Below are positions 3,894 to 49,644 of a DNA stretch of 51,662 nt, piece by piece. The position numbers and the translations under genes were made by a program. Each line of letters opens with the position of its first letter. Position 1 is the first letter of the stretch. Source of the stretch: a virus (lineage: Duplodnaviria; Heunggongvirae; Uroviricota; Caudoviricetes); IMG/VR virus record IMGVR_UViG_2526164599_000006. The stretch is one strand, 5' to 3'. The notes below the pieces were generated by a model that worked only from the letters and a program-made list of their open reading frames with translations, was not told the DNA's origin and searched no databases.

Positions 3894-3985
3894 TTTGTTT
3901 TACCTCATTACAGATTTAAGGGTGAACAAATCCCTGCCATTGCTGGCATATAAGAATGAAACCGGATATTTATTACGGAACTGTT

Positions 3986-4231
3986 TTAAAGACCTGCCGG
4001 GATTTCGTTATTATCCTGGTGAATAACTTTATCGACCGGGTAACAGTTACCGGGAATTTTCTGTTCGGTTGCTGCAGTCACACACTCCTGCATTGTCCTG
4101 TGAACACTGACTGCAATATCAACTGGCTCTCCGGAAACAAGAAAAACTGTCAGAACAAGTGCAAATGCTGTATTCATTGCCAGCATCCTTTTTGTATCGG
4201 ACGTAAACGGGCCAGCATTGAAAGAATGCAT
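3986..4231 (-). CDS. hypothetical small protein with N-terminal hydrophobic segment
   Basis: 81-aa ORF; possible internal start at Met16 (MLAMNTAFALVLTVFLVSG, start 4186); no recognisable family. Confidence 0.3.
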   Translation of the reverse strand: MHSFNAGPFTSDTKRMLAMNTAFALVLTVFLVSGEPVDIAVSVHRTMQECVTAATEQKIPGNCYPVDKVIHQDNNEIPAGL

Positions 4232-4467
4232 ATTTTATTTAATAGCTCCCGTTCGTGTTTTCTCTTGTTAATGGCATCTTCAGTAAATACAGGGTTACTG
4301 ATAGTGACACCAATTTCAAAACAACCTTCAGACGTATTAACGTTTGGTAATAACGTTTCCATTATCGCGTCCTCAACAATGAATTTTGTGATGCGGTGCC
4401 TGGTGCCTCCAGGTGACGTTAACCAGTTAACAATTAACGCCGGATACAGAGAATCCACCCATAACAC
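4174..4467 (-). CDS. hypothetical protein
   Basis: 97-aa ORF in early-left operon orientation; no recognisable family. Confidence 0.3.
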   Translation of the reverse strand: MLWVDSLYPALIVNWLTSPGGTRHRITKFIVEDAIMETLLPNVNTSEGCFEIGVTISNPVFTEDAINKRKHERELLNKICILSMLARLRPIQKGCWQ

Positions 4468-4892
4468 TGTTTTTGGTTTTAACTGTTCCGCGTGCGCTCA
4501 GCCGCATTCACCACATCACAAAATTCACTTTAAAAAGGGCGGCAGAGCAGTCACGGAGTAAAACTGATACCGCCAAACGTCACCAGAAAATTGATAACAG
4601 AGGGCGTTGCAGCGGGGTTGTCACTTAAGCGTATGGTCAACCTGACAACCCGGTGTCCTCAACGGGGGAAGGAATAACCCCGCCATACTTACCGCCGCGC
4701 CATTTCGCGGATTGCCACAACCGGAAGCGCACGGTCGACGAAAATTTAACGACAGGCTATCTATGAACCAGCTACCTCGCCGTGCGCTTTCGCGTTATGG
4801 TCTGACTTTTCAGGGAAATATCCTTTCAGTAAACTTGTCAACGCCAAGATTATTGGCCGTTTTTCGCCATTTTTAATGTCCGCTATTGGTCA

Positions 4893-14895: not shown

Positions 14896-15186
14896 CCTGG
14901 CCTGAAGCATTAACAACGGTAGGAATTGCGATGGCGGTGGCGCTGGTGGTGTATTCGATTTGCCGCTGGGGATAAAAACGGTTTGCGGTAAAGCGAGAGT
15001 TAAGTAGAATTGCTGCGGGTGCTTGAGGCTATCTGCCTCAGGCATGAACACCAAAAGGCAGATAGAGAAAAGCCCCAGTTAACATTACGCGTCCTGCAAG
15101 ACGCTTAACATTAATCTGAGGCCCAATCTATGTCTCACAAATGTAGGTTAGCCTCTTACGTGCCGAAAGGCAAGGAGAAGCAGGCT

Positions 15187-15342
15187 ATGAAGCAGCAAAA
15201 GGCGATGCTAATCGCCCTGATCGTCATCTGTTTAACCGTCATGGTGACGGCACTGGTAACGAGGAAAGACCTCTGCGAGGTACGAATCCGAACCGGCCAG
15301 ACGGAGGTCGCTGTCTTCACAGCTTACGAACCTGAGGAGTAA
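15187..15342 (+). CDS. hokD: Hok/Gef-family small membrane toxin (HokD/RelF-like)
   Basis: 51-aa product MKQQKAMLIALIVICLTVMVTALVTRKDLCEVRIRTGQTEVAVFTAYEPEE; RBS AAGGAG 8 nt upstream; in-frame upstream extension from ATG 15130. Confidence 0.8.
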   Translation: MKQQKAMLIALIVICLTVMVTALVTRKDLCEVRIRTGQTEVAVFTAYEPEE

Positions 15343-16850: not shown

Positions 16851-17225
16851 ATGCGTATAGAGTTTGTTTTGCCTTACCCGCCGACGGTGAACACCTACTG
16901 GCGACGTCGTGGCAGCACATATTTTGTATCAAAAGCCGGTGAGCGTTATCGCCGGGCTGTGGCGCTTATTGTTCGCCAGCAGCGGCTGAAATTAAGCCTG
17001 TCCGGAAGGCTGGCGATAAAGATTATTGCCGAGCCACCGGATAAGCGCCGCCGTGACCTGGACAATATTCTGAAAGCGCCGCTGGATGCGCTGACGCATG
17101 CGGGGTTGCTAATGGACGATGAGCAGTTTGATGAAATCAATATCGTTCGTGCTCAGCCAGTATCTGGTGGACGTCTGGGGGTGAAGATTTACCCCATAAT
17201 GCTTGCAGGGCAGGTCAAAAAATGA
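16851..17225 (+). CDS. rusA: Holliday junction resolvase RusA
   Basis: 124-aa ORF with RusA hallmarks (DxDN core RRRDLDNILKAPLDALT). Confidence 0.85.
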   Translation: MRIEFVLPYPPTVNTYWRRRGSTYFVSKAGERYRRAVALIVRQQRLKLSLSGRLAIKIIAEPPDKRRRDLDNILKAPLDALTHAGLLMDDEQFDEINIVRAQPVSGGRLGVKIYPIMLAGQVKK

Positions 17226-18043
17226 AACTGGAAGATTTACCGAAATACTACTCCCCAAAATCCCCCGGCCTGACTGATGCATCGGCCTCAACGTCGAAAG
17301 ATGCGCTGAGTATCACTGATGTGATGGCCGCGCAGGGCATGACACAGAATCGGGCTGAGATGGGGTTTTCTGCGTTCCTTGGGAAAATGGGCATTAGTAT
17401 GAATGACAGAGAGCGGGCAACAGAATTGCTGACAGAATATGCACTCAGTCGGTGTGATCGCGTGGCGGCGTTAAGAAAACTCCCGGCAGAAATAAAACCG
17501 GTAGTGATGCGCATTATGGCTTCGTACGCTTTTGAGGATTATGCCCGTAGCGCAGCGAGTAAAAAGCAGTGCCCTTGTTGCTATGGGGAAAAATTTATTG
17601 AAAGCGTAGTTTTTACAAACAAGGTCCAGTATCCGGATGGTAAGCCGCCGGTATGGGCAAAGTGTACGAAAGGTGTGTATCCGTCTTACTGGGAAGAATG
17701 GAAAAAAGTCAGGGAGGTGGTAAAAGTTGCCTGTCCGGAGTGTGGCGGAAAGGGTGAGGTTTCCACCGCCTGTAAGGATTGCCGTGGGCGTGGTGTCGCC
17801 ATTCATCGTGAAGAGTCGGTAAAACGTGGTATGCCTGTTATCAGAGACTGCCAGCGTTGTGGTGGTCGTGGCTGTGAAAGACTACCATCAACGGAGGCAT
17901 TTAATGCCATATGCGAAGTGACGAGTGCTATCACGCTTGATACGTGGAAAAAATCAGTGAAACGCTTTTACGATACGTTGGTGGTTCGGTTTGACATTGA
18001 AGAGGCATGGGCGGAGCGGCAGTTAAAGAGGGTAACGCGATAG
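17222..18043 (+). CDS. late-gene antitermination protein Q (QuuQ-like)
   Basis: 273-aa ORF with multiple CxxC zinc-finger motifs; located after rusA and immediately before a promoter/terminator pair and the lysis genes. Confidence 0.65.
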   Translation: MKLEDLPKYYSPKSPGLTDASASTSKDALSITDVMAAQGMTQNRAEMGFSAFLGKMGISMNDRERATELLTEYALSRCDRVAALRKLPAEIKPVVMRIMASYAFEDYARSAASKKQCPCCYGEKFIESVVFTNKVQYPDGKPPVWAKCTKGVYPSYWEEWKKVREVVKVACPECGGKGEVSTACKDCRGRGVAIHREESVKRGMPVIRDCQRCGGRGCERLPSTEAFNAICEVTSAITLDTWKKSVKRFYDTLVVRFDIEEAWAERQLKRVTR

Positions 18044-18617: not shown

Positions 18618-19667
18618 ATGCTTAATACTGTAAAAATATCCAGTTGTGAGTTAATCAACGCCGACTGCCTGGAATTTATCCGGTCGTTACCCGAAAATTC
18701 TGTTGACCTGATAGTCACGGACCCGCCGTACTTTAAAGTGAAGCCTGAGGGCTGGGATAACCAGTGGAAGGGCGACGATGATTACCTGAAGTGGCTGGAC
18801 CAGTGTCTGGCGCAGTTCTGGCGGGTGCTGAAACCTGCCGGAAGTCTTTACCTGTTCTGTGGTCATCGCCTGGCATCTGATATCGAAATCATGATGCGTG
18901 AACGCTTCAGTGTGCTGAACCATATTATCTGGGCGAAGCCGTCCGGACGCTGGAACGGATGCAACAAGGAAAGCCTGCGGGCGTATTTCCCCGCCACAGA
19001 GCGCATTCTGTTCGCGGAACATTATCAGGGGCCGTATCGTCCGAAAGATGCCGGGTATGCGGCGAAGGGCAGTGCACTGAAACAGCATGTGATGGCCCCG
19101 CTGATTTCTTACTTTCGTGATGCGCGCGTGGCCCTGGGGATAACGGCAAAACAGATTGCAGATGCCACAGGAAAGAAAAACATGGTGTCGCACTGGTTCA
19201 GTGCCAGTCAGTGGCAGCTACCGAACGAAAGCGATTATCTGAAATTACAGTCGCTGTTTGCCCGGGTGGCAGAAGAGAAACATCAGCGCGGTGAACTGGA
19301 AAAGCCCCACCACCAGCTGGTGGATACGTATACGTCACTGAACCGGCAGTATGTGGAGCTGCAGAGTGAATATAAGCATCTGCGGCGGTATTTTGGTGTG
19401 ACGGCGCAGGTGCCGTACACGGATGTGTGGACACATAAACCGGTGCAGTTCTATCCCGGGAAACATCCGTGCGAAAAACCGGCAGAAATGCTGCAGCAGA
19501 TAATCAGCGCAAGCAGTCGTCCGGGTGACCTGGTTGCAGATTTTTTTATGGGCTCAGGTTCAACGGTAAAAGCTGCACTGGCGCTCGGGCGTCGTGCGAT
19601 TGGCGTTGAACTGGAGACCGGACGTTTTGAGCAGACAGTCAGGGAAGTTCAGGATTTAATCGTTTGA
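18618..19667 (+). CDS. DNA N6-adenine methyltransferase (orphan, phage-encoded)
   Basis: 349-aa ORF with DPPY catalytic motif (LIVTDPPYF) near the N-terminus and SAM-binding motif (DFFMGSGST) near the C-terminus. Confidence 0.8.
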   Translation: MLNTVKISSCELINADCLEFIRSLPENSVDLIVTDPPYFKVKPEGWDNQWKGDDDYLKWLDQCLAQFWRVLKPAGSLYLFCGHRLASDIEIMMRERFSVLNHIIWAKPSGRWNGCNKESLRAYFPATERILFAEHYQGPYRPKDAGYAAKGSALKQHVMAPLISYFRDARVALGITAKQIADATGKKNMVSHWFSASQWQLPNESDYLKLQSLFARVAEEKHQRGELEKPHHQLVDTYTSLNRQYVELQSEYKHLRRYFGVTAQVPYTDVWTHKPVQFYPGKHPCEKPAEMLQQIISASSRPGDLVADFFMGSGSTVKAALALGRRAIGVELETGRFEQTVREVQDLIV

Positions 19668-19716
19668 AACGGATGAGATTGCAGAATTAATTACGCACCA
19701 TTATTATTCTGCTTCC

Positions 19717-19792
19717 GGCCCTTTAGCTCAGTGGTGAGAGCGAGCGACTCATAATCGCCAGGTCGCTGGTTCAAATCCAGCAAGGGCCACCA
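19717..19792 (+). tRNA. ileZ: tRNA with CAU anticodon, tRNA-Ile2 (lysidine)-like
   Basis: 76-nt cloverleaf GGCCCTT...AAGGGCCACCA; anticodon loop CTCATAA; close to remembered E. coli ileX. Confidence 0.8.
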
Positions 19793-19892
19793 TCACAAAC
19801 CGCCATTAGCTTATCAGGAAGAGCAGACGACACGATAACAGGGTTGTTGGTGCGGGGGCGGGTCCCCGATGGCGGTCCATTATCGGTATTCA

Positions 19893-19969
19893 GCGTTGTT
19901 AGCTCAGCCGGACAGAGCAATTGCCTTCTAAGCAATCGGTCACTGGTTCGAATCCAGTACAGCGCGCCA
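19893..19969 (+). tRNA. argO: tRNA-Arg (anticodon UCU)
   Basis: 77-nt cloverleaf GCGTTGT...ACAGCGCGCCA; anticodon loop CTTCTAA; TTCGAATCC T-loop. Confidence 0.8.
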
Positions 19970-20076
19970 TATTCATTCTTCCAGATTCCTTTCGGCAGAG
20001 CCTTATACTGAAATATACCTGGCTCAGGATATTGTTGAAAATATTATATGTTTGTCAAAAATAAAAGTTCTGTTAA

Positions 20077-20433
20077 GTGTTGATTGAGTGTTTGTTATAC
20101 GGTCTAATGGTTTTTTCAGCATTAAATATTTATCATTCATATGGTGTGGGTAGAGTGAATATTGATGAGGCGTCGGGGTGTTTCATCCTTAGGCAGCGTA
20201 TTGATATAGTCAATGCAGAACGAGCAAAGGCCTTCAGCCGTTTGACAGTTTTGTTCTGTACTCCTGATCGTCTTTCGGGAAGAGACGTTATTATTCTGAA
20301 TAGTGATGCTATACAGAGGGTTTGCGATGAGTTCATGGTGGCTAATTCAGAATTATTTGCTCTTGTTCAGGAGTACAACAGAATAGCCAGGACCTGTGGT
20401 ATGGATGAACTTCGGATTACTCATCTGGGGTAG
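20077..20433 (+). CDS. hypothetical protein in AT-rich cargo DNA
   Basis: 118-aa ORF (track start is GTG); no clear RBS; no recognisable family. Confidence 0.25.
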   Translation: MLIECLLYGLMVFSALNIYHSYGVGRVNIDEASGCFILRQRIDIVNAERAKAFSRLTVLFCTPDRLSGRDVIILNSDAIQRVCDEFMVANSELFALVQEYNRIARTCGMDELRITHLG

Positions 20434-20889
20434 ATACATATCTGGATTATCACCGGTTACGGTAAAAAGTGATTGCTTACTGTTTTTGTGAATGGCATTG
20501 CAGCAGCCGGATAATGTCAGTGCTGGCTGACGGTGTGCTGGTGGCGGGTGTGGTGGTTGCTGCTTTCCCGTTGCTGAAAAAGAAAACGCCAGACTGTTAG
20601 CCGGGTATCAGTTAGCGGGAGAAATTTTTAAATACTTCACAATTCAGGCGGTTGACTGTTGTCTGGTTTGCGGGGAGTTTGTTAAAAGAAACTGGCATGG
20701 TGAATCCCCCTGTGCGGAGGGGCAATCAGCGAGTAGGTATATGGGATAATCGCGGATTCAGGTGCTGGTACTGAATTCACCGGGAGGCACCCGGCACCAT
20801 GCAATGGCACATAGCGCCACTCTCCAGCCCCTCTCCGGAGGGGCTGTTTATATTGATTTTGTCAGATGTGAGTAAACTCCTTATGGACT

Positions 20890-21216
20890 TTATTGTTTTA
20901 GCCCATAAGGACATATTTGCAGAGTGCAACGGTTATTAAAGCATTCATTCAATACGTTATCTGTATTTGTAGGGCATTCCTGGCTGTTTTTGATTAAATT
21001 CCAGAATGTTTTATTGAATGGTACTACGTTGTAAATGGTTACAGGTAGCACTTTGTTATTGAGCATGATGCCTGTGTGAGTCAGTGTAAATATACTTTCA
21101 GGAGGTAAGAAAGCATCCGATTGATACCAGATTATTAATTTTATTTTACTCCATATGACTGAAAAAGATATTCCGCATGATGGCTGGATAACTGTATCAA
21201 TCACAATCCACTTCAT
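20890..21216 (-). CDS. hypothetical Cys-rich protein in AT-rich cargo DNA
   Basis: 108-aa ORF with RBS AGGA 6 nt upstream of ATG; C-terminus has five cysteines ([26 protein letters not shown]). Confidence 0.3.
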
Positions 21217-21476
21217 TTAGTTTCCTTGTTTATGCCTTGCTGGTGATGTTCTGAAAAGTATAAATGATATTTTTGATTGTAAACCATAGAGCAGAATTAT
21301 TTTTCTGATGTTGTTTATTGTTTATTTAAATGCAGGGTGGTTTATATCTCGTCTTGTAGTTTATCCATGCATATCTGCTTGATGATGAGGTTTTTAATTA
21401 AGGTATGGTTTTGTGTTTTTTCTGTATTACATGTCAGGTATTTTAAAGAATCATTTTTCAGATGGTGGAAAGAACC

Positions 21477-23330
21477 ATGGCATTTAAACACTATGATGTT
21501 GTCAGGGCGGCGTCGCCGTCAGATCTTGCGGAAAAGCTGACACATAAACTGAAAGAGGGCTGGCAGCCGTTTGGTAGTCCGGTGGCCATAACCCCTTATA
21601 CCCTGATGCAGGCGATTGCAGCAGAAGGTGATGTGGTCGTCAGTGGTGCAACTGAGCCGGAGTGGTACTACGTCATCGTACTGGCCGGGCAGTCCAATGC
21701 CATGGCTTACGGTGAAGGGCTTCCGCTTCCGGATTCATACGATGCGCCCCATCCGCGCATTAAGCAACTGGCCCGTCGTAACACAGTGACTCCCGGTGGT
21801 GAAGTATGCGTATTTAACGACATCATTCCTGCTGACCATTGTCTGCATGATGTTCAGGATATGAGTACGATTAACCATCCCCGGGCTGACCTGAGCAAAG
21901 GGCAGTACGGCTGTGTCGGACAGGGCTTACATATTGCCAAAAAACTGCTTCCGTATATCCCTAATAACGCGGGGATCCTGCTGGTACCATGCTGTCGTGG
22001 TGGTTCGGCATTCACCCAGGGCACGGAGGGGACATTCAGCGAGTCCACGGGGGCCAGTCAGGATTCGGCTCGCTGGGGAGTGGGTAAGCCGTTATATCAG
22101 GATCTGCTTTTCCGCACGAAGGCAGCATTGCAGAAAAACCCGAAAAACGTTTTGCTGGCGATATGCTGGATGCAGGGGGAATTCGATATGACGAATGCCA
22201 GTTACGCCCAGCAGCCAGCAGCATTTCTTGCAATGGTACAGCAGTTCCGTGCTGACCTTGCCGGGCTGGCGGCGCAGTGTCACGGTGGAAGTCCGGCATC
22301 AGTCCCCTGGATTTGTGGCGACACGACATACGCGTGGAAACAAGAACACGGTACGCAATATGAAGTGGTATATGGTGCATATAAAGGTAAAGAATCCCAG
22401 CAGATTTATTTTGTTCCCTTTATGACCGATGGTAGCGGAGTTAATACACCGACAAACAACCCGTCAGAAGATCCTGATATTGTCGGGTCTGGTTATTACG
22501 GTTCGGCATCCCGAACGAACAAAAACTGGGTATCATCAAATCGCCCGACGCATTTCAGCTCATGGGCGCGTCGTGGCATTATTCCCGATCGTATGGCAAC
22601 CGCTATTCTGAACGCAGCCGGGCGCACCTCAGCTTTCATCAGTGGTAAGGCACCGGAAATCAAACCCTCGCCCGGCGGCAACACGCCATCGGGGCCGTCT
22701 GAAGATGCATCCGTACGCACAATCTCCCTGTTGCCGACAGCCGGAGAGGCTGCTGCGCAGGGCTGGACCATTAAGGACGGCGGAATTCAGTTGTCGGGTG
22801 GTGTATTTAAGATCGCCAAGCAGAGCAATAAAACCTGGTCCCTGATGCATCCGGTGGATGACGCAGTCTCCCTGCTGACACGGGGTGGCAGACTGAGCTG
22901 TAAGTTTCGACTGTCAGGCGCACTGACCAACAACCAGTTCGGCCTGGGAATTTATCTGTATACCGATGTAGCGTTACCTGACGTCGTGGCGATGACCGGG
23001 ACTGGTAACCCGTTCCTGATGTCGTTCTTCACCCAGACCACAGACGGCAAACTGAATCTGATGCATCACAAGAAAGCAGGAAACACAAAGTTGGGCGAGT
23101 TCGGGAATTACAGTAATGACTGGCAGACGCTGGAACTGGTGTTCACCGCCGGCAGTGCCACGGTTACTCCGAAACTGAATGGAGTGGCTGGCCCGGCATT
23201 CCAGGTCATAAAAGACAGTCTGACACTGGGGCTGAATGCGCTGACGCTGACGGATATTACCAAAAATGCAGCGTATGGCGTTGAGATAGAAAGTCTGGTG
23301 CTGGAGATAAATGCACCGGCATCATCATAA
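21477..23330 (+). CDS. nanS-p: NanS-p-like sialate O-acetylesterase (DUF1737 N-terminus plus SASA domain)
   Basis: ORF with GQSN motif (VLAGQSNAMAYG) and DUF1737-like N-terminus (MAFKHYDVVRAASP); track start 21462, ATG 21477 preferred. Confidence 0.75.
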   Translation: MAFKHYDVVRAASPSDLAEKLTHKLKEGWQPFGSPVAITPYTLMQAIAAEGDVVVSGATEPEWYYVIVLAGQSNAMAYGEGLPLPDSYDAPHPRIKQLARRNTVTPGGEVCVFNDIIPADHCLHDVQDMSTINHPRADLSKGQYGCVGQGLHIAKKLLPYIPNNAGILLVPCCRGGSAFTQGTEGTFSESTGASQDSARWGVGKPLYQDLLFRTKAALQKNPKNVLLAICWMQGEFDMTNASYAQQPAAFLAMVQQFRADLAGLAAQCHGGSPASVPWICGDTTYAWKQEHGTQYEVVYGAYKGKESQQIYFVPFMTDGSGVNTPTNNPSEDPDIVGSGYYGSASRTNKNWVSSNRPTHFSSWARRGIIPDRMATAILNAAGRTSAFISGKAPEIKPSPGGNTPSGPSEDASVRTISLLPTAGEAAAQGWTIKDGGIQLSGGVFKIAKQSNKTWSLMHPVDDAVSLLTRGGRLSCKFRLSGALTNNQFGLGIYLYTDVALPDVVAMTGTGNPFLMSFFTQTTDGKLNLMHHKKAGNTKLGEFGNYSNDWQTLELVFTAGSATVTPKLNGVAGPAFQVIKDSLTLGLNALTLTDITKNAAYGVEIESLVLEINAPASS

Positions 23331-24114: not shown

Positions 24115-24648
24115 ATGAACGCAAAAATCAGATACGGCCTGTCGGCTGCCGTTCTGGCACTGATTGCCGCTGGTGCGCCTGCGCCTGACATTCTCGACCA
24201 GTTTCTGGATGAAAAGGAAGGTAACCACACCACGGCATACCGTGATGGCGCGGGTATCTGGACCATCTGCCGCGGTGCCATCCTGGTGGATGGCAAACCT
24301 GTCGTTCCGGGCATGAAGTTGTCGAAGGAAAAATGCGACCGGGTTAACGCCATTGAGCGTGATAAGGCGCTGGCATGGGTGGAGAAAAACATCAAAGTGC
24401 CATTGAGCGAACCCCAGAAAGCGGGGATCGCGTCATTCTGTCCGTACAACATTGGTCCCGGTAAGTGTTTCCCGTCGACGTTTTACAGACGAATTAATGC
24501 TGGCGATCGCAGGGGAGCATGTGAGGCGATTCGCTGGTGGATTAAGGACGGTGGCAGAGACTGCCGTATTCGTTCAAATAACTGCTATGGACAGGTCTCA
24601 CGGCGTGACCAGGAGAGCGCGCTGGCGTGCTGGGGTATCGACAGATAA
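24115..24648 (+). CDS. R: SAR endolysin (lysozyme)
   Basis: 177-aa ORF with N-terminal signal-anchor-release segment (LSAAVLALIAAGA) and lysozyme catalytic region. Confidence 0.85.
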   Translation: MNAKIRYGLSAAVLALIAAGAPAPDILDQFLDEKEGNHTTAYRDGAGIWTICRGAILVDGKPVVPGMKLSKEKCDRVNAIERDKALAWVEKNIKVPLSEPQKAGIASFCPYNIGPGKCFPSTFYRRINAGDRRGACEAIRWWIKDGGRDCRIRSNNCYGQVSRRDQESALACWGIDR

Positions 24649-49060: not shown

Positions 49061-49644
49061 TGGCATTCAGAATGAGTGAACAAGCACGGACCATAAAAAT
49101 TTATAATCTGCTGGCCGGAACTAATGAATTTATTGGTGAAGGTGACGCATATATTCCGCCTCATACAGGTCTGCCAGCAAACAGTACCGATATTGCACCA
49201 CCAGATATTCCTGCTGGCTTTGTGGCTGTTTTCAACAGTGATGAGGCATCGTGGCATCTCGTTGAAGACCATCGGGGAAAAACGGTTTATGACGTAGCGT
49301 CAGGGGACGAGTTATTTATTTCTGAACTCGGTCCGTTACCGGAAAATGTTACCTGGTTATCGCCGGAAGGGGAGTTTCAGAAGTGGAACGGCACAGCCTG
49401 GGTGAAGGATACGGAAGCAGAAAAAATGTTCCGGATCCGGGAGGCGGAAGAAACAAAAAACAACCTGATGCAGGTAGCCAGTGAGCATATTGCGCCGCTT
49501 CAGGATGCTGCAGATCTGGAAATTGCAACGGAGGAAGAAACCTCATTGCTGGAAGCCTGGAAAAAGTATCGGGTGTTGCTGAACCGTGTTGATACATCAA
49601 CTGCACCTGATATTGAGTGGCCTACGAACCCTGTCAGGGAGTAA
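49060..49644 (+). CDS. tfa: tail fibre assembly protein Tfa
   Basis: 194-aa ORF overlapping stf stop; Tfa-like N- and C-termini. Confidence 0.85.

Follow-up and report, generated by a model that had tools for sequence, protein, structure and literature searches.

The interval at positions 19970-21476 of the window, by which we mean the whole 51,662-nucleotide stretch of DNA analyzed here, is very probably a composite block of cargo (moron) genes in a lambdoid prophage, built from four undecayed parts of which three already have names. The parts are iraL, the small RNA STnc100, a DUF3927 gene and a gene for a 92-residue protein, and together they form a common and previously described cargo block of E. 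coli prophages. A preliminary description of the window had presented the interval as unrecognized cargo. We no longer regard that label as appropriate, given that the minus-strand ORF is iraL, a member of NF007393 whose 108 residues are all identical to those of the CFT073 protein, and that the hairpins noted in the interval belong to STnc100/EcOnc27.

The gene order of the late region in the window is Q, methyltransferase, tRNAs, cargo and esterase, and then holin, lysozyme and Rz. Upstream of the cargo, the Q antiterminator gene lies at 17222-18043 and the DNA methyltransferase gene at 18618-19667, between Q and the tRNAs. The upstream edge of the slot is a plus-strand tRNA gene with a CAT anticodon (19717-19792; ARAGORN; Rfam tRNA, 72.5 bits), and the identical gene at the homologous locus is named tRNA-Ile by RefSeq. 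The final gene ahead of the cargo is a plus-strand tRNA-Arg (TCT) at 19893-19969 (ARAGORN; Rfam tRNA, 68 bits). The downstream edge is formed by a plus-strand gene at 21462-23330 for a NanS-p-like esterase of 622 aa, in which Pfam recognizes DUF1737, SASA and DUF6645; RefSeq labels the homologous esterase ‘SASA family carbohydrate esterase’. The AT-richness attributed to the block was borne out by a GC content down to 0.31-0.42 (0.37-0.42 at 19850-20300 and 0.31-0.35 at 20900-21500), compared to about 0.52 in the flanks, and the low-GC DNA lies to either side of a GC-normal center. The two ORFs were present as described, at 20077-20433 (plus strand, 118 aa, GTG) and 20890-21216 (minus strand, 108 aa, ATG), and so were the two GC-rich hairpins, a stem at 20707-20725 and a terminator-like stem at 20825-20846 with a T-run after it. 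That list of features nevertheless overlooked a 43-aa DUF3927 ORF at 20469-20600, and the hairpins, although real, had not been recognized as parts of one 190-nt sRNA.

The minus-strand ORF at 20890-21216 was identified as iraL, encoding a 108-aa RssB anti-adaptor of the IraM/IraL/RssC family. Residues 1-107 matched the NCBIfam model NF007393 with 159.6 bits, well above its cutoff at 121, and residues 1-78 matched chain A of PDB entry 8TWD (IraM) with an E-value of 8.5e-32, in agreement with the published description of the IraM fold (PMC10844676). By sequence, the ORF belongs to the family with the PmrD-like beta-barrel core of IraM, which is predicted to span residues 1-78. Our own Pfam scan gave no match for IraL at E <= 0.1; a precomputed database annotation assigns PF11183 (PmrD) to the family. 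All 108 residues are identical to those of the CFT073 protein WP_000871291.1, and 334 of the 336 nucleotides (99.4%) agree, where the published study required at least 95% identity to CFT073 iraL across the coding region for a gene to be counted as iraL (PMC4045071). The cysteine-rich C-terminus that had been noted in this ORF was also confirmed, with four cysteines in the last 28 residues, all of them invariant in the family.

The region 5’ of iraL is conserved as well. The 5’-RACE sequence published for CFT073, ACATCACCAGCAAGGCATAAACAAGGAAAC (PMC4045071), was found in the minus strand of the window and places the transcription start site at 21249, giving a 33-nt 5’ UTR and a sigma-70 promoter within 21217-21290 on the minus strand. 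The promoter has the -10 element TATACT, with TTTACA about 15 nt upstream. Between -100 and +33, three SNPs distinguish the window from CFT073, none of them in the -10 or -35 hexamers. The promoter and start-site region was reported to be at least 96% conserved in all iraL strains (PMC4045071), and conservation at that level was found in the window too.

The only coding difference between the window gene and CFT073 iraL is a C-to-T nonsense change, seen as A for G at 20892 on the plus strand, and as a result of it the product is three residues short, the final QSP being lost. It might be proposed that the premature stop at codon 109 has made this copy an inactive allele, since the change strips QSP relative to both CFT073 and O104:H4. 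We consider this improbable. K-12 IraM stops at the aligned K107, as do several other members of the family, and residues 1-78 of IraM alone suffice for a stable complex with RssB (PMC10844676); the lost residues fall beyond the core that binds RssB, and their loss is expected to be harmless. Further, the window gene retains the four invariant cysteines, the entire PmrD-like core and an intact promoter, and exactly the same 108-aa allele has been deposited, as IraM, on 31 contigs. The four cysteines fall in a tail that corresponds to the C-terminal tail of IraM, which was deleted by the crystallographers on account of its proteolytic instability (PMC10844676).

We compared the window iraL with its two characterized relatives. 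In CFT073, iraL (ycgW) lies in the potB prophage island, and its promoter, transcription start site and 5’ UTR are the same as in the window apart from the three SNPs. Its neighbors are also shared, namely the tRNAs, the DUF3927 gene, STnc100 and the DUF1737 gene, in the order Q, IS200, three tRNAs, DUF3927, a partial pseudogene, ‘IraM’ (WP_000871291.1), a truncated DUF1737 gene and holin. The two loci differ in that CFT073 IraL keeps the QSP that the nonsense SNP removes from the window allele, in that the esterase is full length (622 aa) in the window but a truncated DUF1737 pseudogene in CFT073, and in that CFT073, which has no methyltransferase gene, carries IS200 in the interval from Q to the tRNAs. 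K-12 IraM (b1160, located beside e14; solved with RssB in PDB 8TWD) shares NF007393 and the PmrD-like beta-barrel core, and the IraM/IraL alignment has 38 invariant columns that include the four C-terminal cysteines, but the K-12 protein is just 61-62% identical to the window IraL, and in cluster III the H63 and I64 of IraM are replaced by N63 and V64. In published work, Mg2+ starvation induces IraM, which binds both domains of RssB, whereas IraL is active in log phase and binds only RssB's N-terminal domain. The latter activity, together with the stabilization of RpoS in log phase, was established for CFT073 IraL by Hryckowian et al. (2014; PMC4045071).

The center of the block is occupied by the sRNA STnc100 (RF02076; plus strand, 20666-20855), and both GC-rich hairpins lie inside it. 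When all Rfam families were scanned with cmscan, this copy scored 132.4 bits against a gathering threshold of 47, untruncated over model positions 1-206 of 206, and it has a minimum free energy of -74.6 kcal/mol with a z-score of -2.2. The hairpin at 20707-20725 is a stem internal to the RF02076 model, and the one at 20825-20846 is the intrinsic terminator stem on the plus strand, with 9 pairs of which 7 are GC, followed by TTTATATTGA, as indicated by the Rfam alignment. We also asked if this terminator could act in both directions and so end iraL, an idea that found no support because the minus strand has no T-run past the stem. A consensus scan detected no promoter-like site directly 5’ of STnc100 or of the GTG at 20155; the closest plus-strand match was at 20035-20062 (9/12), and matches in the region were no commoner than in shuffled sequences.

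STnc100 has several described relatives. In Stx2 phages it lies 75 nt 3’ of the stx2 operon, and it has been detected by RT-qPCR in STEC vesicles (PMC12370729). The Hfq-binding EcOnc27/sRNA103 of O157:H7 overlaps STnc100, and its over-expression raised the fimZ and espA transcripts (PMC12711010). The PasD sRNAs, which are kin of STnc100, adjoin prophage esterase genes (bioRxiv 10.64898/2026.05.13.724894). The window copy resembles these RNAs in its strong full-length match, its stems, its terminator and its place between a cargo gene and the esterase; it differs from the copies of Stx2 phages in being preceded by the DUF3927 gene, where those follow stx2B, and its score of 132 bits is below the 158 bits of the copy in phage 2851. 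By analogy to EcOnc27/sRNA103 in O157:H7, we predict that STnc100 of the window is a discrete Hfq-associated transcript. A mosaic joint also falls inside STnc100, since homology to mEp460 spans 19970-20803 and homology to 640R1 spans 20637-21476, so that the first stops at 20803 and the second begins at 20637, each point being within STnc100 or beside it. In two of the loci examined (L002 and L006), two STnc100 copies each close successive cargo units. These observations suggest that STnc100 may double as a shared sequence for recombination and the exchange of cargo units.

The Stx-phage-like order of genes that had been proposed for this region agrees with that of the Stx2c phage 2851 (NC_049943.1), in which stx2AB follows the tRNAs. 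The phage carries Q, tRNA-Ile/Arg/Arg, stx2A, stx2cB, STnc100, an IraM-like gene on the opposite strand, the DUF1737 esterase gene and lysis genes; the window shares Q, the tRNAs, a cargo, STnc100, the opposite-strand IraM-like gene, the esterase and the lysis genes. The differences are that the cargo is stx2AB in the phage and the 92-aa ORF with the DUF3927 gene in the window, that the Q gene of the phage is of another type, that the phage is without the methyltransferase gene, and that its IraM-like protein, which is unannotated, is only 74-75% identical to the window IraL. By tblastn, an IraM-like gene at this level of identity to IraL was found in 41 Stx2c/Stx2a phage records, mostly unannotated. 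The stretch from the tRNA to STnc100 in the window (19970-20665) lacks stxA and stxB and contains nothing besides the 92-aa ORF and the gene for DUF3927. Because STnc100 and the IraM-like gene lie 3’ of stx2B in phage 2851, only these two genes stand at the stxAB place. The earlier view that the whole block replaces stx thus held for the 92-aa ORF and the DUF3927 gene, but not for STnc100 and the IraM-like gene, which accompany stx2 in phage 2851. The arrangement in phage 2851 implies that the slot consists of two sub-slots with STnc100 between them. In the window, the 92-aa ORF shares the first sub-slot with the DUF3927 gene, and iraL fills the second, as in Stx2c phages.

The DUF3927 gene (plus strand, 20469-20600) encodes a small hydrophobic, TciB-like protein of 43 aa. 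It matched PF13064 with 92.7 bits against a gathering cutoff of 25 and also matched phrog_1470 (‘TciB-like’), and RefSeq annotates WP_001438304.1 at the same place; NCBIfam gave no match for the protein. The ‘TciB-like’ label, which refers to cell-division inhibition or colicin resistance, was transferred from phage P1-type genes and is annotation only.

The remaining part of the block is the plus-strand ORF, which is a real gene conserved under purifying selection. It matched phrog_2873 with 235 bits across the full profile (positions 1-108 of 108), and phrog_4827 is a distant relative (E 2.4e-5); both are families without functional annotation, so that membership supplies a name but says nothing of mechanism. 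A second E. coli clade, with 56-61% identity, was recovered when 5.8 billion proteins were searched. Over the 91 codons shared by the two clades there is 67% nucleotide identity without indels, the differences by codon position are distributed 25/22/42, the dN/dS is 0.27, and the frame of the plus ORF is the only one open in both clade sequences. The credible members of the family are all 91-95 aa long, and the aligned ones begin at the position of the GTG at 20155. The 118-aa start at 20077 was rejected; the 26-codon upstream extension is broken in the clade-2 loci (L012 and L013) by frameshifting indels and a stop codon. The coding sequence is therefore most likely 20155-20433 on the plus strand, 92 aa with a GTG start that forms the core of the 118-aa ORF, and in this respect the preliminary description, which had correctly noticed the gene, probably placed its start too far upstream. 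The Shine-Dalgarno sequence ahead of the GTG is weak.

An alternative for the interval as a whole is that it is decaying non-coding filler left after the loss of stx or other cargo, with the ORFs being chance frames. The low GC content would fit such a history, as would the degenerate state of the middle tRNA immediately upstream in the window, the omission of the plus ORF by PGAP in RefSeq genomes, and the partial pseudogene that PGAP calls at 20685-20810. Decay of this kind is, in our judgment, extremely unlikely. The dN/dS values of both ORFs (0.27 in the between-clade comparison of the plus ORF, 0.17 in that of iraL with K-12 iraM) are far under 1, with no indels relative to relatives at about 61-67% nucleotide identity; iraL has been characterized experimentally; STnc100 scores 85 bits over its gathering threshold; and the block is retained at 95% identity or more in over a thousand genomes. 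The results on selection and family membership rule out decay for iraL, STnc100 and the DUF3927 gene. The idea, already put forward, that the interval holds cargo in a late-region moron slot is thus upheld for two ORFs that are both conserved and under purifying selection.

As functional cargo, the plus-strand gene belongs to a very small family. Exhaustive HMMER searching of 1.84 billion representatives returned only 23 matches at E <= 0.001. Pfam gave no match at E <= 0.1, NCBIfam gave none, and single-sequence and profile searches of PDB sequences likewise gave none. A tblastn search of phage records with the plus ORF matched mEp460 alone, and viral contigs scanned with distant members of the family gave no match. 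In E. coli, 1185 of the 5426 complete genomes carry the ORF at 95% identity or more, its position is unannotated by RefSeq in the genomes sampled, and the exact 92-aa sequence has been deposited as the hypothetical protein O3M_14235 of O104:H4. The homolog in Citrobacter braakii has a Q-like gene with tRNAs on one side and, on the other, a TerB-like gene that precedes lysis genes; the clade-2 copies come after an AraC-type regulator, with Q and a methyltransferase farther upstream. The similar context of the Citrobacter and clade-2 copies points to a long association of the gene with this slot.

Structure prediction for the 92-aa protein with AlphaFold2 (8-sequence alignment) gave a confident model with a pLDDT of 88, a helical hairpin in which two long antiparallel helices are linked by a short beta-hairpin. 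The fold matches of this model were generic helical hairpins only, and any role assigned to the protein is consequently a guess. One such role is that of a new host-directed factor (a toxin, an immunity or anti-defence protein, or a regulatory connector) that takes the place of Shiga toxin as payload. The position of the ORF between the tRNAs and STnc100, which is the stxAB place in phage 2851, speaks for this, as do its purifying selection and conserved length in the E. coli clades and Citrobacter within the same Q-to-lysis slot, the very small size of the family (23 in 1.84 billion) and its lack of a Pfam or NCBIfam model, and the AraC-type regulator gene that precedes the clade-2 copy, as is typical of moron cargo. 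Against it, the protein matched no PADLOC model or solved structure, neither a signal peptide nor a transmembrane segment is seen in its sequence, and the loci examined share no conserved partner gene, the DUF3927 gene being missing from four of them (L006, L010, L012 and L013). The protein could equally be an accessory protein of phage late functions, and we regard a host-directed payload as a rather doubtful proposition. The earlier thought that defence-related genes might be found here was not supported, in that none of the three small proteins matched a PADLOC defence model at E <= 0.1. Our more specific suggestion, that the 92-aa protein is a lysogenic-conversion or anti-defence factor at the stxAB position, from a prophage family in about one-fifth of sequenced E. 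coli, is offered tentatively and is unlikely to hold.

The complete block is widespread. Positions 19701-21696 of the window are 97.3% identical, in an end-to-end alignment, to the potB prophage of the uropathogenic E. coli strain CFT073. When 5426 complete E. coli genomes were searched by megablast, 863 carried 80% or more of the 1.5-kb block, with top matches at 99.9% identity, and the iraL region was found in 1446 genomes of the same set. The RefSeq labels at matching loci read ‘anti-adapter protein IraM’, ‘DUF3927 family protein’ and ‘hypothetical protein’.

Taken together, the parts suggest how the block might work. From its own sigma-70 promoter, iraL would be expressed in the repressed prophage during growth. 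The IraL protein would bind RssB at its N-terminal receiver domain and keep it from delivering RpoS to ClpXP, and the resulting stability of RpoS in log phase, with the greater stress resistance shown for the CFT073 protein, may extend to the window. The 92-aa gene, the DUF3927 gene (a putative membrane peptide) and STnc100 all point in the direction of the late operon, and the 92-aa gene would be transcribed in the Q/pR’ direction. STnc100, as a structured and probably Hfq-associated sRNA of roughly 190 nt, would close the upstream cargo unit, as it does after stx2B in Stx2 phages. Upon induction, Q-modified polymerase would presumably pass through the STnc100 terminator and, antisense over iraL, reach the esterase and lysis genes.

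As a discovery, the block carries little weight and the finding matters little in this sense, because the main gene and the sRNA (iraL and STnc100/EcOnc27) are already published and the block is common. What it adds to the biology of these prophages is a conserved 92-aa gene under purifying selection that RefSeq omits in the E. coli genomes sampled, and a view of the stx slot as two sub-slots, the second of which holds an unannotated IraM-like gene in Stx2c phages. For the strain that carries the window, the sequence of iraL and its promoter predicts prophage-driven stabilization of RpoS in log phase.

The conserved 92-aa ORF of the cargo slot (window 20155-20433) was found in 1185 of the 5426 complete E. 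coli genomes searched, yet the RefSeq genomes that were sampled (hits H83-H89) carry no feature annotation at this position. It is likely a small gene that has been systematically missed by annotation. In a second clade of E. coli homologues, 56-61% identical to the window's copy, the gene for a 241-aa AraC-family (HTH_18) regulator lies directly upstream of the ORF in the same late-region slot (3969-4694 in related locus L013; 164-889 in L012 and L014), and related loci L006-L009 carry an IS3-family element inserted between the two genes.

We recovered an IraM-like gene, convergent with stx2B, between STnc100 and the esterase gene in Stx2c and some Stx2a phages (phage 2851 plus 40 further Stx2 phage records); among the records listed, the majority leave it without annotation. 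In the Stx2c phage 2851 the gene occupies 24242-24562 of NC_049943.1 (L011 4501-4821). The Stx2-phage protein has 74-75% identity to IraL and 66% to K-12 IraM.

Upstream of the slot, a 349-aa DNA methyltransferase gene (window 18618-19667) lies between Q and the tRNAs, as it does in O104:H4, whereas IS200 occupies this position in uropathogenic CFT073 and phage 2851 has neither. ARAGORN and Rfam called only two tRNAs in the window's late region. The middle of three late-region tRNAs is tRNA-Arg in CFT073, O104:H4 and phage 2851, but it is scrambled in the window (19803-19879), where the acceptor ends are retained and the central ~45 nt are divergent; it is also scrambled in phage vB_EcoS-640R1. 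Further Rfam matches in the window, all above the gathering score, were DicF (76.7 bits; 4537-4588, minus strand), sok, which is the antitoxin RNA of a hok/sok module (121.7 bits; 15017-15192, plus), and IS009 RNA (49403-49601, plus, 223.8 bits).

A partial 'hypothetical protein' pseudogene annotated by RefSeq in homologous loci (window 20685-20810, minus strand) probably arose as an artefact of annotation; its whole length runs antisense to STnc100. Some prophages carry two copies of STnc100, each at the end of a separate cargo unit (2561-2754 and 3030-3218 in L002; 2344-2556 and 5650-5839 in L006), and the points in the window (20637-20803) where homology to phage mEp460 stops and homology to phage 640R1 begins lie inside or beside STnc100. 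Together, the paired copies and these breakpoints suggest that the STnc100 sequence serves as an exchange site for cargo units.
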